From the NCBI GenBank assembly GCA_944323285.1, contig CALURV010000024.1, positions 38,893 to 102,892 of the forward strand: 64,000 bases of DNA. The letters run 5' to 3'. Under the pieces are notes generated by a model, which saw only the letters and a program-made list of their open reading frames with translations, was not told the DNA's origin and ran no database searches. Every line of letters starts with the position of its first letter. Positions within the stretch are counted from its first letter, which is position 1. Made by a program: the position numbers and the translations under genes. This document shows positions 29,427-35,771 of this stretch, in pieces. This stretch comes from Candidatus Gastranaerophilales bacterium (GTDB taxonomy: Bacteria > Cyanobacteriota > Vampirovibrionia > Gastranaerophilales > Gastranaerophilaceae).

Positions 29427-30305
29427 ATGAAAATTATAAAAATTATATTTATTAATATTCTTTTTCTTATTCTTTTATTAGGTATTTTTGAATTGATTTT
29501 ATTTTTTTATTATTCTAACAAAGAACCTAATGAAAAATATCATATTGGAAAAATACCTTATATTAATTTATTAACTCCCGACAGGTTTAGACCGCCTGTT
29601 GGAGTTAATTATAATAAAAGACCAATTATAATTTTAGGTTGTTCTTTTGCTTTTGGTCAATATCTAAATGAAAATCAAACTTTAGGCTATAAATTAGCGA
29701 ATTATTCTCATAGGCCTGTTTATAATTATGCAGTTTGTGGTAAAGGTATTCAAAATGCTTTATTTATATTGCAAAATAAGTTATATGATACATCTATTAA
29801 AGATCCAGAATTTATAATTTATGTTATGATGAGTGATCATATTCGTCGATTATATACTAATGTTTGTATGGGTGATTTTGTCGGTTATCCTGATTATAGA
29901 ATTGATAAGAATGGTAATATTAAGTTGTATAGAGATTATTTCCCAGTATATAGACAGTTTTATACTTTTTATTATTTTAATAATTTATTTTATAAATATA
30001 TATTGAGAAAAAATTATAAACGCCATAATTTGTATATTAATGCTTATTTTGAAGAAATGAATAAAGAAATTAAAAAACAATTTCCTAATATAAAATTTGT
30101 AATATTAATTTATGGAGATAAAAATAATTTTGGGCTTGATTTATCTAAATTAGAAAAAGATGGATTTATAATTTTGCAAACAGATGAAATCTCTGGTGTT
30201 AATCTTTTACAACGTAAATATCAATTATCTGAAACGGATACTCACCCAACCGAAGAAGCTTGGGATATTATTATTCCAGCTTTAGTAAATAGGTTATGTT
30301 TATAA
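29427..30305 (+). CDS. membrane-anchored SGNH/GDSL-like hydrolase or acyltransferase, paralogue 1
   Basis: N-terminal TM anchor, block-I-like IIILGCSFAFGQ, Gly block YNYAVCGKGIQ, C-terminal TDTHPTEEAW (Asp/His block). Same 292-aa length as the next gene and alignable with it throughout. Confidence 0.5.
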   Translation: MKIIKIIFINILFLILLLGIFELILFFYYSNKEPNEKYHIGKIPYINLLTPDRFRPPVGVNYNKRPIIILGCSFAFGQYLNENQTLGYKLANYSHRPVYNYAVCGKGIQNALFILQNKLYDTSIKDPEFIIYVMMSDHIRRLYTNVCMGDFVGYPDYRIDKNGNIKLYRDYFPVYRQFYTFYYFNNLFYKYILRKNYKRHNLYINAYFEEMNKEIKKQFPNIKFVILIYGDKNNFGLDLSKLEKDGFIILQTDEISGVNLLQRKYQLSETDTHPTEEAWDIIIPALVNRLCL

Positions 30306-30306
30306 A

Positions 30307-31185
30307 ATGAAATTTGTAAAAATTTTACTTATAAATGTTATTTTATTTATTTTGCTACTTTTTTTATTAGAAATGTGTCTTTTTATCTCATTTAAAAGGA
30401 CGCATCCTAATATTAAATATCATTTAAAAAGTATAAGTTATGAAGATTATTTAAAAACAGTGGTTCAAAGATTTCCAGTTGGGTTAAATTATAAAAAAAG
30501 ACCAATTATTTTATCAGGATGTTCTTATATATATGGTTTGTATTTTGAAGGTATTCATACTCCACAGTATAAATTGTCTGAGTTATCAAAAAGACCAGTT
30601 TATAATTATGCTATTCCAGGTAAAGGTATACAACATACTTTATATGTTCTCAGTCATAAACTGTACGATAAAAACATAAATAATCCTGAATATTTTATAT
30701 ATTTTATGATTAGTGATCATATTAGAAGAATGTATTCTCCTGTGATGTTTAATGATTGTGTTGCTAATCCAGTCTTTAATGTTGATAAATATGGGCATGT
30801 TATTGAGTATAAAGGGAACTATCCTCTATACAAAAAAACATTCACTTATTATTATTTTTTTAATATTTATTATTTTAACTTTTTCAATAAGGATTATATT
30901 ACTCATAGAAAAAATATAGTAGCTTATTTTAGAGAAATGAATAGACTTTTAAAAAATTCTTTTCCAGACATAAAACTGGTCATAATTTTATATGATGATT
31001 TATCACCATATGATATAGTTTTTTCTTCTTTAAAAAATGATGGTATTATTGTATATAAAGCAAATGAATTGACAGATGTTAACTTGATTAATTCTAAATA
31101 TTGGATTTCAAAGACAGATCCCCATCCTAATGAAGCTGCTTGGGATGTTCTTATGCCAAAATTAGTTGAAAAATTAAACTTATAG
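30307..31185 (+). CDS. membrane-anchored SGNH/GDSL-like hydrolase or acyltransferase, paralogue 2
   Basis: Same architecture: PIILSGCSYIYG, YNYAIPGKGIQ, TDPHPNEAAW. Starts 1 nt after the upstream stop. Confidence 0.5.
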   Translation: MKFVKILLINVILFILLLFLLEMCLFISFKRTHPNIKYHLKSISYEDYLKTVVQRFPVGLNYKKRPIILSGCSYIYGLYFEGIHTPQYKLSELSKRPVYNYAIPGKGIQHTLYVLSHKLYDKNINNPEYFIYFMISDHIRRMYSPVMFNDCVANPVFNVDKYGHVIEYKGNYPLYKKTFTYYYFFNIYYFNFFNKDYITHRKNIVAYFREMNRLLKNSFPDIKLVIILYDDLSPYDIVFSSLKNDGIIVYKANELTDVNLINSKYWISKTDPHPNEAAWDVLMPKLVEKLNL

Positions 31186-31313: not shown

Positions 31314-32309
31314 TTAAAATCCGGCTATGTTTTCTTCTCTTGAGTGTTCGACTTCGCATTTTACTTGAAAAATTTGTCCATACAACTCGCATTTTAAGCC
31401 TATTTCTTTTGATGTTTTTAATGTGTATTGCATTAAATTATATATTGGTATTAAATCATTGTTTACATTATCCATAATCCATCTGAAATCAAGATTTAGT
31501 ACAACACTTTTTATTCCTATTTCTTTACATTTTTTTAGCCAAATTAAAATTTCTTCTTCTCTATCATTATATCCAGGAACAATTATATACTTGGCCTTTA
31601 CATAATCAGCATCTTTAGGTTGATTTTTTGCATATTCTTTTAAATTTTTCCAAACATCTTTGTATGAATTTACTTGCTTAACTTTTTTATGAGTTTCTTG
31701 TGTTCCAGCATCTATTGATACTAATACCCTAATTACTCCTTTTCTTAATCCTTTTATTATAGAATTACTTCTCTTTATAGCATTAGTATGAATAATAATT
31801 TTTCTGAAATCATTTTTAATGAATTCTTTTAAGAGTGATTCAAATTCACAATATATAGTTGGTTCTCCGCCTGCAAAATCAATAGTTCCTTCCTTTTTTA
31901 ATATGTTATTTTTTATCATATCTTTTATTAATGGCAGTACCTTATATGGTTTTGTATTTTCAAGAACATATTTATCTCTTGGAGCATCGCAATATATACA
32001 ATTTGAATTACACTGAACCCAGGGGGTTAATAATAAATAATCAATATAATCATCATTATTCCACTCTTTATATGCTATATTTACGCACTCTTTGCATAAT
32101 TCAGGACAAGAATTTTCTCTAAAGTTTTTCCTTAGTTCGCTTTTTATATTGAAAAATTCTTCCCAATTTATTTTTTCACCATGGTAGTTCTCATAAATTA
32201 TTGGTCTTCCGCCATGTCTTGGATTAAAATTATTACAAAATCTTATAGTGTTACAAGAATCAAGTACCATTCCGTGTTCTATATAGCTGCAACTTTCAAA
32301 TTTTTCCAC
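31314..32309 (-). CDS. radical SAM protein with N-terminal four-Cys (twitch/SPASM-like) domain, paralogue 1
   Basis: CNSNCIYC (CxxxCxxC) at aa 100-107, FAGGEPT, SIDAGTQETHKKVK. N-terminal conserved Cys at 7, 25, 72 and 75. GTG start preceded by AAGAGGGAAA. Confidence 0.85.
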   Translation of the reverse strand: MEKFESCSYIEHGMVLDSCNTIRFCNNFNPRHGGRPIIYENYHGEKINWEEFFNIKSELRKNFRENSCPELCKECVNIAYKEWNNDDYIDYLLLTPWVQCNSNCIYCDAPRDKYVLENTKPYKVLPLIKDMIKNNILKKEGTIDFAGGEPTIYCEFESLLKEFIKNDFRKIIIHTNAIKRSNSIIKGLRKGVIRVLVSIDAGTQETHKKVKQVNSYKDVWKNLKEYAKNQPKDADYVKAKYIIVPGYNDREEEILIWLKKCKEIGIKSVVLNLDFRWIMDNVNNDLIPIYNLMQYTLKTSKEIGLKCELYGQIFQVKCEVEHSREENIAGF

Positions 32310-32319
32310 ATTTCCCTCT

Positions 32320-33303
32320 TCATATTAATTTGTATTCTGTTGTTAAATACCTGAAATTATTGTAGTCAATTAAATTTAAATTTAATTCTCTTGATTTTTC
32401 AATTATGTATTTGCATAAATCAATTAAATATTGTGGGGTTGTTATATTGTTTTCTCTTAGCTTTTTGCAATATTCATTTTCTATATCTATAACAATAGAT
32501 TTTATACCATTTTTTATATTTAGTTCAAACCATTTGTCTATTTCTTCTTTATTTGTATTAATATCCGGTATTAATATATATTTAGTTTCAACAAAGTTCT
32601 TAGTAATATCTGTTTGAGCATTAGCATATTTTTTTACATTTTTCCAAAACTTATCAAAGCAATCAACTCTCTTAATTTTATTGTACATTTCTCTTGTGCC
32701 TGAATCTGCAGAAAGACAGACGTGCAATTTTTGTTCTTTTATCCCTCTTTCAATAGCTTTAGAAAACTTAATACCGGAAGAATGAACAGTAATTCTGTCT
32801 GCGCCATTTTTTAATAGTAACTTTATTAGTTCATCAAATTCTTCAAGTATTGTAGGTTCACCTCCGGCAAATGTTATTTCTCCTCCTGGTCTAAATAATT
32901 TCTTTTTAAATAAATCTTTTATTATAGGTAATACATTATAATGTTTTTTCTTTTGAAAATTCTTTTTATCCCAAGAAGTATAACAATATATACAATCACT
33001 GTTGCACCTTGTCCAGTGGTTAAAATGTATATAATTTATATATTTTTCATTATCATCCCATTCCCTGTTTGAAAGATTAAAACACCCTTCACATCTTCTG
33101 TCTATTATATTTTCTTTATTTTCATTAATAAATTTTTGTTTTAAGTCGATGATATTGTCCCAAGTTAATCCTTTTCCATTATAATTTTCTTTTATATATA
33201 ACCTGCCGCCACCTTTATGGCAACATAAGCAACACATTTCAATATGATCATTTTCGAAACTTAAACCATGTAATATCCAGTGGCAGCTAGTATATTTATT
33301 CAT
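32320..33303 (-). CDS. radical SAM protein with N-terminal four-Cys (twitch/SPASM-like) domain, paralogue 2
   Basis: CNSDCIYC, FAGGEPT, SADSGTREMYNKIK. N-terminal Cys at 7, 24/25, 71 and 74. The ATG overlaps the upstream stop (TAATG). Confidence 0.85.
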   Translation of the reverse strand: MNKYTSCHWILHGLSFENDHIEMCCLCCHKGGGRLYIKENYNGKGLTWDNIIDLKQKFINENKENIIDRRCEGCFNLSNREWDDNEKYINYIHFNHWTRCNSDCIYCYTSWDKKNFQKKKHYNVLPIIKDLFKKKLFRPGGEITFAGGEPTILEEFDELIKLLLKNGADRITVHSSGIKFSKAIERGIKEQKLHVCLSADSGTREMYNKIKRVDCFDKFWKNVKKYANAQTDITKNFVETKYILIPDINTNKEEIDKWFELNIKNGIKSIVIDIENEYCKKLRENNITTPQYLIDLCKYIIEKSRELNLNLIDYNNFRYLTTEYKLI

Positions 33304-34310
33304 TATTGGTGCTCTTTCTCTTTATGAAATTTCATCATGTGCTCTGCTCTTTCATATAGTTCGTACTTTAATCCAAGTTGCTCAGCTTTTTCTTTTGCAT
33401 AATTAAATATTTCAAAAATTTTATCATCTACATTTTCTCTTCGTGCATAAAACCACTTTGATTCTATTTCGTGTAATACAAAATTAATTCCATTCTCTTT
33501 TGATTTTATGAGCCAAGTATCTATTTCTTCTTTAATATCATTTTCACCGGGAATCACAATATATTTTGTCTTTACCGCATACTTATCTTTTTGCTTTGAA
33601 GCATAATTTTTAAGATTTTTCCAAACTTTATCGTACGAATCTACTCCTTTTATTTTTCTATGCATTTCTTTTGTTCCTGAATCAACAGAAACAATTAAGT
33701 CAACACATCCTTCTTTTAGTCCTTTTTCGATTGCTTTTGAATATAAAATGCAAGATGAGTGAATTCTGATTAATGGAAATCCAAAATCTATAAATATATT
33801 AAGAAGTTTTTCAAACTCTTTTAATAAAGTAACTTCACCGCCGCCAAAACTTACGTGTCCATTTGGTCTTAATATATCTCTTTTTATCATATCTTTTAAG
33901 ATTGGAAGGAAGTTATAATTTTTAAAACTATTATATCGTTTTTTATCTGTCATTGTATGACAATATGAACATCTTGAATTACATTTTGTCCAATAATCAA
34001 GATTTATCATACTTATCTTTGTATGATTGTCATCCCAATCTTTTTCTTCTAAGAATATGCAACCTTCACATTTTGGATATATTTTCCCACTTTTGAAGAC
34101 ATCTTTCATTTGTTTCTTAAATTCAAATACTTTTTCCCAATTTATTGGTTTCCCTTTATAGTTATCTTCAATTATTGTATTACCGCCGCCCTTTGCACTA
34201 TACAAACAGCATACTTTATATGCATCTATATCAAAATTTATTCCAGATTCTATCCAATAACAACTTTTATAGCGCAAAATTATTCCTCTTCTCATTAATA
34301 ATTTTATCAT
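33303..34310 (-). CDS. radical SAM protein with N-terminal four-Cys (twitch/SPASM-like) domain, paralogue 3
   Basis: CNSRCSYC, FGGGEVT, SVDSGTKEMHRKIK. Alignment with the paralogues and an AGAGGAA SD favour a TTG start at 34277 rather than the ATG at 34310. Confidence 0.85.
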   Translation of the reverse strand: MIKLLMRRGIILRYKSCYWIESGINFDIDAYKVCCLYSAKGGGNTIIEDNYKGKPINWEKVFEFKKQMKDVFKSGKIYPKCEGCIFLEEKDWDDNHTKISMINLDYWTKCNSRCSYCHTMTDKKRYNSFKNYNFLPILKDMIKRDILRPNGHVSFGGGEVTLLKEFEKLLNIFIDFGFPLIRIHSSCILYSKAIEKGLKEGCVDLIVSVDSGTKEMHRKIKGVDSYDKVWKNLKNYASKQKDKYAVKTKYIVIPGENDIKEEIDTWLIKSKENGINFVLHEIESKWFYARRENVDDKIFEIFNYAKEKAEQLGLKYELYERAEHMMKFHKEKEHQ

Positions 34311-34320
34311 AACTCTACTT

Positions 34321-34352
34321 AAAATAAAAAGACATTCTATTGAATGTCTTTT
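34321..34352 (-). terminator. intrinsic terminator overlapping the stop codon of the 443-aa gene
   Basis: Minus strand reads AAGACATTC-AATA-GAATGTCTT followed by TTTATTTT. The stop codon lies in the loop. Confidence 0.65.
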
Positions 34353-35668
34353 TTATTTTGTTTTTTTATATCTTCTGCAACATGAAATTTTGTAGTTCCT
34401 GTTTTCATTTCTCTATATTTGTATATGAGTTTTGGAATTACATATCCAAGAACTAGGCAGGATATTCCAATATTTGCCATAACAGAGCTTACCTTAAGTG
34501 CTTTTGTTTTTGCTAAAAATTTATTAACTGGTTCTTTTGCTGCTTGGAAGTTTTTATCAATATTTAGAAGTTGTTGTGCTAAAGCTTCTATTTCTTTTAT
34601 ATCAATATATTTTGAGGTATCTATTATATTTGCTCCATTTGTATCTTTTAAAGTTTGTATAAATTTTGACTTCTTTGCTGCTTGAACTATTATATTATTT
34701 GGATTATTTATAAGAAAATTTAATTTTTCCGTTAAAGATTTATCTTTTTTAGGCAATTGAGCAACATCTTTTGCTATTTTACCATTTAATAGTGCGTCTG
34801 CTAATTTATTATCCATTAATACATCAATTTTTAAATCTATAGGTTTGTGGAAGAATTTATCAGCAGCTTTATTTATACCTTTTTCTATTAAATTTCCAAA
34901 CCCATATATAAAGAATAAAAATCCGCCTTCTTTTATTGCATGTTCAAAAAATTCTGTTTTATTTCTTGAACATGCAAGTCTTTCTGTTGTAATTCCTGCA
35001 TCTATAATTTTCATATTGTGCACAGGGTTAAACATTATTGCTTCACCTAAATTTTTACCTATTCCTTTGAATGTTGGATTTTTACTTGAATGGTATTCAT
35101 TAAATTCTGAAAAAATATTCTTTTCTTCATTTTGTTTTATTTTATGGTCTTTTATTGACTTCATTTCATCAATAACAGTATTTTTTGTTCTTTTTTGTTT
35201 TGTTTTAGTTAAGAGAAAAAATGTAGCAAGAGTTAAGGCTGTTGCTGCGATGATTTTACCTTTATATAAATTTTTAGCTAGCTTTCCTCCATCTTTCAGA
35301 CAATCTTTTATAGCTGATTGTACAGTTTGACTCTTTGTATTGGCCATTATACCCTTTGCATTTTCTTTTGCCCAGGCAGAATATTCTTTATTCGCTATTA
35401 TTCTTGGATCTACTTGTGGATTTATTTTCCCTATTTTATATGCAGTATAATCTATTAATTTTTTATAAAATGGTATTCCACCAATCCAAATAGCTTGTGT
35501 ACCAAACTCATCAATTGCTCTATCCATTCCTTCGATGGGACCACCTTCTTTAAATGATTTATATGTTAAACTTGATGAATCAACTCCATCTTTTATCATT
35601 ATTGGTATTAATGATTCTTTGTTTCCTAATGTTGAAACTATTTTTGTTGTTATTGATTGTATCGACAT
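34337..35668 (-). CDS. hypothetical membrane protein (443 aa), no recognisable domain
   Basis: Long ORF with SD AAAGGAAA and predicted TM segments (IIAATALTLATFFLL, GGFLFFIYGFGNLI, VMANIGISCLVLGYVIPKLI). I recognise no catalytic motif. Confidence 0.6.
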   Translation of the reverse strand: MSIQSITTKIVSTLGNKESLIPIMIKDGVDSSSLTYKSFKEGGPIEGMDRAIDEFGTQAIWIGGIPFYKKLIDYTAYKIGKINPQVDPRIIANKEYSAWAKENAKGIMANTKSQTVQSAIKDCLKDGGKLAKNLYKGKIIAATALTLATFFLLTKTKQKRTKNTVIDEMKSIKDHKIKQNEEKNIFSEFNEYHSSKNPTFKGIGKNLGEAIMFNPVHNMKIIDAGITTERLACSRNKTEFFEHAIKEGGFLFFIYGFGNLIEKGINKAADKFFHKPIDLKIDVLMDNKLADALLNGKIAKDVAQLPKKDKSLTEKLNFLINNPNNIIVQAAKKSKFIQTLKDTNGANIIDTSKYIDIKEIEALAQQLLNIDKNFQAAKEPVNKFLAKTKALKVSSVMANIGISCLVLGYVIPKLIYKYREMKTGTTKFHVAEDIKKQNKKDIQ

Positions 35669-35687: not shown

Positions 35688-35771
35688 CTACAAGCCCCAA
35701 GCTAGATTCATTAATTTGACAATTGGGGCAATTGTCTTTTTTATTCTTTCTTCTCGTCGGATATTTTTCAT
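35688..35771 (-). CDS. candidate 27-codon micro-ORF (MKNIRREERIKKTIAPIVKLMNLAWGL)
   Basis: GGAG-TATAAA-ATG is the identical SD and spacer seen at the bona fide gene at 23137. The stop lies 19 nt before the ATG of the 443-aa gene. Not in the supplied ORF track (too short). Confidence 0.35.
   Translation of the reverse strand: MKNIRREERIKKTIAPIVKLMNLAWGL

Follow-up and report, generated by a model that had tools for sequence, protein, structure and literature searches.

Three tandem radical-SAM paralogues of a Gastranaerophilales bacterium with a probable diverged twitch domain ahead of the radical-SAM core

In a Candidatus Gastranaerophilales genome (assembly GCA_944323285.1), three adjacent genes, here called par1, par2 and par3, encode paralogous radical S-adenosylmethionine (SAM) proteins in which a four-cysteine domain of about 95 residues precedes the radical-SAM core. 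This N-terminal domain is very probably a diverged twitch (half-SPASM) domain. The genes lie in a 64-kb window (contig CALURV010000024.1, positions 38,893 to 102,892), which is the whole stretch of DNA analysed and to which all positions below refer. The genome (Gastranaerophilales; Melainabacteria/Vampirovibrionia) has a GC content of about 27%. Taken as a whole, the most satisfactory explanation, which we consider reasonably probable, is that the trio belongs to an uncurated family of ancient paralogues whose diverged N-terminal twitch domain would hold an auxiliary cluster and whose members would catalyse a sugar-type oxidation. The genes, domains and motifs are as follows.

33303-34310, minus strand: par3, radical-SAM paralogue of 335 amino acids (aa), first gene in the trio
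33990-34310, minus strand: par3 N-terminal twitch-like domain, residues 1-107, with Cys 17, 34, 35, 81 and 84
33960-33983, minus strand: par3 SAM-cluster motif CxxxCxxC, CNSRCSYC, residues 110-117
32320-33303, minus strand: par2, radical-SAM paralogue of 327 aa
33013-33303, minus strand: par2 N-terminal twitch-like domain, residues 1-97, with Cys 7, 24, 25, 27, 28, 71 and 74
32983-33006, minus strand: par2 SAM-cluster motif CxxxCxxC, CNSDCIYC, residues 100-107
31314-32309, minus strand: par1, radical-SAM paralogue of 331 aa, GTG start
32019-32309, minus strand: par1 N-terminal twitch-like domain, residues 1-97, with invariant Cys 7, 25, 72 and 75
31989-32012, minus strand: par1 SAM-cluster motif CxxxCxxC, CNSNCIYC, residues 100-107

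The three open reading frames (ORFs) are arranged head-to-tail on the minus strand and occupy exactly the positions given by the initial annotation, which had been made from the sequence letters. The par3 stop and par2 start codons share one nucleotide (TAATG), and the GTG start of par1 lies 10 nt past the par2 stop, with an AGAGGGA Shine-Dalgarno sequence ahead of it. The trio is a translationally coupled set conserved in Gastranaerophilales, with pairwise identities of 36-43% among the three proteins. PF04055, the radical-SAM core, is their only Pfam match (about residues 95-260) and was found above threshold in each (63.9-75.3 bits against a cut-off of 29.5; E 1e-17 to 8e-21). All motifs previously quoted for these proteins are present, namely CxxxCxxC at about residue 100 (residue 110 in par3), FAGGE/FGGGE and SIDAGT/SADSGT/SVDSGT in the core, and SC-x-[WY]-I, C-[EK]-[GE]-C, GG and NY-x-G-x3-W in the N-terminal domain of every copy. 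No cysteine motif was found C-terminal to the core in the trio proteins.

The cysteines of the N-terminal domain are its most strongly conserved feature. They correspond to C7/C25/C72/C75 in par1, C7/C24/C71/C74 in par2 and C17/C34/C81/C84 in par3. The par2 set is invariant in 123 par2-type sequences (120 homologues and the three window copies), and the four cysteines are the sole invariant positions of the domain among 82 representatives of 50%-identity clusters, which bears out the earlier claim of four conserved cysteines. In 67 of the 82 the second position is a CC pair, which adds a fifth cysteine. A profile of the domain, searched against 1.84 billion representative proteins, returned 386 clusters at E<=1e-3, 112 of them at E<=1e-10. 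The domain is nearly always N-terminal, in proteins of 320-360 aa, and lies directly upstream of a radical-SAM core in every case examined, longer proteins included.

The par2 clade shows a further peculiarity around its second cysteine, the motif MCCLCCH (par2 residues 24-29; window 33217-33234, minus strand), which brings its N-terminal domain to seven cysteines. Across the 123 sequences C25 and C28 are conserved in 120-122, C27 in 105 and H29 in 121. These seven cysteines exceed the need of one [4Fe-4S] cluster, and the surplus could provide alternative ligation or a second metal site.

Assignment of the N-terminal domain as a diverged twitch is based on end-to-end homology to a family with a recognised SPASM/twitch N-domain, on canonical topology and on a BtrN-like cysteine spacing. 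The homologous family is a sibling found in related Gastranaerophilales genomes (e.g. L035:4858-5862, P0269-P0355), with proteins of the same length (about 335 aa) that are interleaved with members of the window family in the same gene arrays. The N-domain of this sibling (residues 7-72) passes PF13186 with an E-value of 1e-14, so that automated annotation reads PF13186 followed by PF04055, and its profile finds the BtrN twitch (E 8.7e-8) and anSME (0.02) in the PDB. Judged from its sequence, the sibling N-domain is a genuine twitch. A full-length hhalign comparison of the two families, run with a permissive mact of 0.05, aligned 304 columns collinearly (1-320 against 1-319) at a probability of 98.7% and an E-value of 3.2e-16, all four cysteines being in register. 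When the N-domains alone were aligned, the Cys, the CC pair, the helix and the third Cys were again in register, and the score of 20.4 exceeded a column-shuffled null of 11.1 +/- 2.0 (maximum 17.7; 0 of 150 shuffles reached 20.4). The sibling retains the SPASM hallmarks GNI, EIWNG and FR and ends in C-x4-C, whereas in the window family these hallmarks are gone, the N-domain closes with C-x2-C and PF13186 fails to detect it.

The second line of evidence is structural. In the BtrN-type twitch, one cysteine precedes a beta-hairpin, one follows it and two lie past helix alpha2' (PMC6231123). The AlphaFold2 (AF2) model of par2 (predicted local distance difference test, pLDDT, 92.4; predicted template modelling score, pTM, 0.87) has predicted elements E2-6, H8-12, a hairpin E13-16/E20-22, E36-39 and a helix 48-63 before the CxxC. 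The predicted order in the AF2 models, C7, hairpin 13-16/20-22, C24, helix 48-63 and C71-x2-C74, is the canonical twitch order, and on these models the domain would have the BtrN-type succession of Cys, hairpin, Cys, helix and two Cys. BtrN itself, a 2-deoxy-scyllo-inosamine dehydrogenase and twitch radical-SAM enzyme (PDB 4M7S/4M7T), likewise has a single auxiliary-cluster motif and the same element order, with four cysteines available for full ligation. The spacing noted previously as close to that of the BtrN twitch proved so on the 4m7s alignment, with C-x17-C-x44-C-x2-C in BtrN against C-x16-C-x46-C-x2-C in the trio family. Further, the helix and CxxC of the window-family hidden Markov model (HMM) align to the BtrN helix and C232-x2-C235, a marginal match of 7 bits that 24 of 2000 shuffles equalled (empirical p about 0.01). 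The same N-domain HMM weakly matches the C-terminal SPASM domain of the protein P0358.

However, several direct tests weigh against a twitch assignment. The three N-domains, scanned in isolation against Pfam and NCBIfam at E<=10, gave no match, PF13186 and TIGR04085 included, and only two of 35 family members touched PF13186 at all (E about 0.05). A profile built from 35 N-domains found no SPASM/twitch protein among all PDB sequences and returned solely a spurious dihaem cytochrome c (E 0.09). Foldseek comparison of the isolated N-domain AF2 model (pLDDT 92) with the PDB, a check proposed along with the initial annotation, came out negative, the best E-value being 2. The N-domain-only hhalign probabilities are also low (2-7%), so the case for homology rests on transitivity and collinearity. 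Thus, of the earlier description of this domain as twitch/SPASM-like, the part that stands is the one carried by sibling homology, topology and spacing, and direct recognition by Pfam, NCBIfam, PDB profile or Foldseek was not obtained.

These results could be read differently, in that the N-domain might be an unrelated four-cysteine module (a structural zinc site or another Fe-S fold) that mimics twitch spacing, its match to the sibling family being forced by homology of the cores. The lack of any direct profile or fold match, the low N-domain-only probability and the permissive setting of the full-length alignment would all fit such a module. Yet the N-domain-only score lies above all 150 column-shuffled controls, the elements follow the canonical twitch order, and C-x16-C-x46-C-x2-C is not the pattern of a paired-knuckle zinc ribbon; the window and sibling families also share gene arrays, protein length and domain position. 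We therefore consider an unrelated module distinctly unlikely and retain the diverged twitch.

A twitch or SPASM domain in this position is rare and departs from the usual description. In the literature, SPASM/twitch domains are defined as C-terminal extensions, and about 165,000 radical-SAM genes have been counted in that way (PMC9012708). In the trio, the N-domain at residues 1-97 precedes a core that starts at about residue 95, and the proteins thus fall outside this definition. They resemble the canonical SPASM (anSME, PqqE, SuiB, CteB) and twitch (MoaA, SkfB) enzymes in combining a core with an auxiliary Fe-S domain, but differ in that the auxiliary domain of the latter is C-terminal by definition (PMC9012708). 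The canonical SPASM domain moreover has a seven-cysteine motif and two clusters, and its members acting on peptides that are ribosomally made and modified post-translationally (RiPPs) carry an RRE domain, which the trio lacks. Similarly, the trio differs from BtrN in placing the auxiliary domain ahead of the core rather than behind it, and BtrN is absent from the top 50 Foldseek matches to the full-length model.

Auxiliary clusters N-terminal to a radical-SAM core do have precedents in the methylthiotransferases (MiaB/RimO, with the UPF0004 domain) and lipoyl synthase. The N-domain of these enzymes has a different fold and a different cysteine pattern from that of the trio; Pfam gave no PF00919 match in the trio proteins, and their LipS2 matches are weak and limited to the core. 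A literature search found no paper describing an N-terminal twitch/SPASM domain and nothing relevant on radical SAM in Gastranaerophilales. Nevertheless, the twitch-before-core layout is not new as a concept, since the NCBIfam model NF033640 is named for it ('N_Twi_rSAM') and Pfam already lists PF13186 before PF04055 in the sibling family. The permuted architecture proposed by the initial annotation is probably right as to domain order, although the layout had already been captured by curators.

NF033640 is a curated model with the same domain order as the trio, its profile positions of about 3-100 corresponding to a PF13186-positive N-terminal domain and about 109-271 to the radical-SAM core. 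However, par1 reaches only 28.3 bits against the cut-off of 170, with the core alone aligned, and NF033640 is absent among the 25 families listed for each of par2 and par3. The model is also longer, with about 398 positions against 327-335 aa for the trio proteins. The sibling family aligns to it over its full length, with 50.7 bits, which is likewise under the cut-off. The window proteins fail the cut-off and are thus a separate, uncurated family of 386 clusters recognised by no curated model. The suspicion that the family might already have been curated was accordingly correct for the layout and incorrect for these proteins.

No characterised enzyme is close to the trio. Other NCBIfam matches (MoaA, viperin, PFL-activase, Tes) are 5-10-fold under their cut-offs and cover the core only. 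Full-length Foldseek comparison with the PDB returned generic radical-SAM cores (TMq <= 0.53), the nearest being SkfB (E 6e-9), SuiB, CteB-like enzymes and anSME, and a full-length profile best matched GDGT-MAS, BlsE, SkfB and viperin, again in the core region only. Source databases label these proteins 'radical SAM protein' or, for some relatives in JGI, 'organic radical activating enzyme'; the latter label is wrongly applied to this family. That label, together with the presence of prokaryotic viperin (E 7e-15; PADLOC pVip, 62 bits), PFL-activase and NrdG among the best NCBIfam/PADLOC matches, would be expected if the trio were viperin-like nucleotide-modifying enzymes or glycyl-radical enzyme activases. 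The scores are, however, far under the curated cut-offs (55 bits against 180; 51 against 232), the matches span the N-terminal half of the core only, and neither family has an N-terminal four-cysteine domain, which makes this explanation highly improbable. In detail, the activase models TIGR02493/TIGR02494 gave 23-51 bits against cut-offs of 174-232, with CxxxCxxC at residue 100 and not near the N-terminus, and the prokaryotic viperin model NF038283 gave 41-55 bits against 180. A viperin-type defence system was likewise rejected, as the pVip match of par2 covers profile positions 5-144 of 262 and the C-terminal nucleotide-binding part is missing.

The three copies are old. About 27 loci from different Gastranaerophilales species show one and the same order, [443-aa gene]-par3-par2-par1, placed downstream of rplI and the map/adk/secY block. 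Orthologues across these loci are 66-84% identical (76-84% for par3 in about 27 related loci), against 36-43% between paralogues. When 112 family members were placed in a neighbour-joining tree, the orthologues of par1, of par2 and of par3 grouped into three exclusive clades, with 25, 27 and 28 sequences respectively. Judging from these sequence comparisons, the triplication is ancient, because the trio is syntenic across species, each paralogue has its own clade and orthologue identity exceeds paralogue identity. Recent tandem duplication, raised earlier as a point to be settled by phylogeny, is ruled out by the synteny in about 27 loci and the exclusive clades. A trio is likewise found in more distantly related loci (L039-L041), where the par3 and par2 orthologues are clear, the third copy is a different one and a gene for a MatE/Polysacc_synt-type transporter comes next.

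At L039 (7906-12398) and L040 (8008-12465), in relatives with about 52% identity to par2, this MatE/Polysacc_synt-like transporter has 444 aa. Related genomes also carry further family copies at other loci, some of them in larger arrays; L035 (3873-10262) has five such radical-SAM genes in a row. The largest array, in a related Gastranaerophilales metagenome-assembled genome (L042/L043; GCA_011262095.1, JAAGKN010000196.1, 276419-308779), comprises about 21 radical-SAM genes of 320-453 aa in about 32 kb. It mixes the window family with the PF13186-positive sibling family, and is interspersed with genes for two polytopic membrane proteins of about 515 aa (no Pfam/NCBIfam match) and a 764-aa TPR protein. 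A search of the 64-kb window found no MatE gene, no further family copies and no homologues of these polytopic membrane proteins.

From the foregoing, we infer a mechanism for the trio. The N-domain would most likely bind one fully cysteine-ligated auxiliary [4Fe-4S] cluster, the putative ligands being one Cys ahead of the beta-hairpin, a second Cys (or the CC pair) behind it and the CxxC past the long helix. The CxxxCxxC cluster of the (beta/alpha)6-type core would cleave SAM to give a 5'-deoxyadenosyl radical, which would abstract a hydrogen atom from the substrate. The auxiliary cluster may then accept the electron of the radical formed on the substrate, in the manner proposed for BtrN and anSME, so that the net outcome would be a two-electron oxidation or a cross-link. 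The three paralogues may act on successive or related positions of a sugar, cyclitol or glycan-type substrate.

The class of substrate is the most tentative part of this proposal. On analogy with distant branches, a non-peptide substrate of sugar, cyclitol or glycan type seems likelier than a RiPP, a preference that we hold with somewhat less than even confidence. It is drawn because the trio lacks an RRE domain and because of the fusions and neighbours found in distant branches (aldo/keto reductase, class III aminotransferase, GT2, MatE). As previously claimed, no RRE/PqqD-like domain was detected in the trio proteins with Pfam or NCBIfam. Fusions of the radical-SAM protein to GT2 and to MatE (P0128, 763 aa) occur in the family. 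In four of the five contexts examined, the radical-SAM, aldo/keto reductase and aminotransferase genes are adjacent, and near the module of Humisphaera borealis there are GT2, GT4 and APH-type kinase genes; another module locus has five sulfotransferases and an Acyl_transf_3/SGNH protein. Two points tell against a sugar-type substrate. These contexts stem from branches whose common ground with the window trio is limited to domain architecture, and the trio's own neighbours (the 443-aa protein, a Bax-inhibitor-like protein and ribosomal protein L9) are uninformative on the substrate. Thus, the earlier preference for a small molecule or sugar over a RiPP is plausible from distant branches and gains nothing from the trio's own surroundings.

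Loci with the radical-SAM/aldo/keto reductase/aminotransferase module are L044 (6765-11125; Humisphaera borealis CP063458.1), L046, L047 and L048. Across them, the neighbours include GT2/GT4 genes, APH-type kinases, sulfotransferases or an inositol-monophosphatase-family gene. A single Sulfitobacter protein of 1594 aa (P0228, WP_335748979.1) combines the N-domain, the radical-SAM core, an aldo/keto reductase and a class III aminotransferase. By its composition, the module looks like an uncharacterised amino-sugar or aminocyclitol-type pathway. In BtrN, the radical-SAM chemistry is followed by the action of its aminotransferase (PMC9012708), and the linkage or fusion of a distant family branch to an aminotransferase resembles this oxidise-then-transaminate logic; the window trio differs in having no aminotransferase nearby.

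Upstream of the trio, on the same strand, the window contains the following features.

34326-34353, minus strand: terminator-like perfect 12-bp hairpin with a T-run, between the 443-aa gene and par3
34337-35668, minus strand: gene for a 443-aa protein without family assignment, with two hydrophobic segments, directly upstream of the trio
35688-35771, minus strand: conserved ORF of 27 aa preceded by a strong ribosome-binding site (GGAG); 16 nt separate it from the 443-aa gene downstream

Most species have the 443-aa gene in synteny with the trio (60-75% identity), but L013 and L023 lack it, which leaves a functional link between this gene and the trio uncertain. Neither the 443-aa protein nor the 292-aa paralogues described below gave a match in NCBIfam or Pfam scans. 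The hairpin overlaps the stop codon of the 443-aa gene, lies 16 nt ahead of the par3 start and is terminator-like on both strands; from its sequence, it may separate or attenuate transcription into the trio. Full-length matches to the 27-aa ORF MKNIRREERIKKTIAPIVKLMNLAWGL lie in the equivalent position of 14 related loci and have the ending N-L-[IV]-W-G-L-stop in every case; the surrounding 272-nt intergenic region shows 71-79% identity between loci. It travels with the 443-aa gene, both being absent in L013 and L023, where the trio is kept.

This ORF bears on the possibility that the trio proteins are peptide or protein maturases (RiPP-type or protein-modifying), with a substrate that is encoded elsewhere or is the 27-aa peptide itself. 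In its favour, RiPP maturases make up the majority of the characterised SPASM/twitch enzymes encoded in tandem arrays. SkfB, SuiB, CteB-like enzymes and anSME are among the proteins whose structures come closest to the core, and the conserved ORF, ending NLIWGL, lies 1.4 kb upstream on the same strand. Nevertheless, there is no RRE/PqqD domain, no small or precursor ORF flanks the trio, and the terminator-like hairpin stands between the 27-aa ORF/443-aa gene and the trio. The family is fused to sugar and small-molecule enzymes, not to peptidases or RiPP-type transporters. The persistence of the trio in loci lacking both the ORF and the 443-aa gene rules out the 27-aa peptide as an obligatory substrate. 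Overall, maturases appear an unlikely alternative to oxidases of a sugar-type substrate.

Further, the different branches may be brought together in a single proposal, which is speculative and on balance doubtful. The proteins would constitute an undescribed clade of naturally permuted twitch radical-SAM enzymes. The Gastranaerophilales arrays, with up to about 21 genes, would serve combinatorial tailoring of a cell-envelope glycan or a sugar-derived metabolite, and the branch with aldo/keto reductase and aminotransferase (in Planctomycetota and others) would perform BtrN-like alcohol oxidation followed by transamination. If so, the latter branch would mark an unrecognised amino-sugar or aminocyclitol pathway.

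Apart from this proposal, an auxiliary domain ahead of the barrel would offer a natural test of domain docking and electron transfer. Profile-based censuses of "single-cluster" radical-SAM enzymes would miss two-cluster members of this kind, since nothing but radical-SAM core domains (PF04055, sometimes PF13353) is reported for these proteins by Pfam, whether precomputed or scanned locally. Both the gut Melainabacteria expansion and the conserved module of environmental bacteria point towards sugar or metabolite chemistry that is as yet unexplored. The advance is a modest one and overturns no paradigm, given that curators already know the layout and that a reaction is not yet assignable.

Three further features of the window lie beyond the 3' end of the trio.

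30307-31185, plus strand: gene for a 292-aa protein with an N-terminal hydrophobic segment, convergent with the trio
29427-30305, plus strand: tandem paralogue of the former, also 292 aa and convergent with the trio, with an N-terminal hydrophobic segment
27064-27318, minus strand: bacterial large signal recognition particle (SRP) RNA, between a TPR gene and the enolase gene

The two 292-aa paralogues are 45% identical, and homologues in this place are confined to some of the related loci (L009, L012, L018), which makes it a variable spot. By eye, GCS..G and a C-terminal D-x-H-P recall SGNH-type esterases/acyltransferases, a resemblance that no tool supports. The SRP RNA (RF01854, 84 bits) was the only match in an Rfam scan of the whole window.

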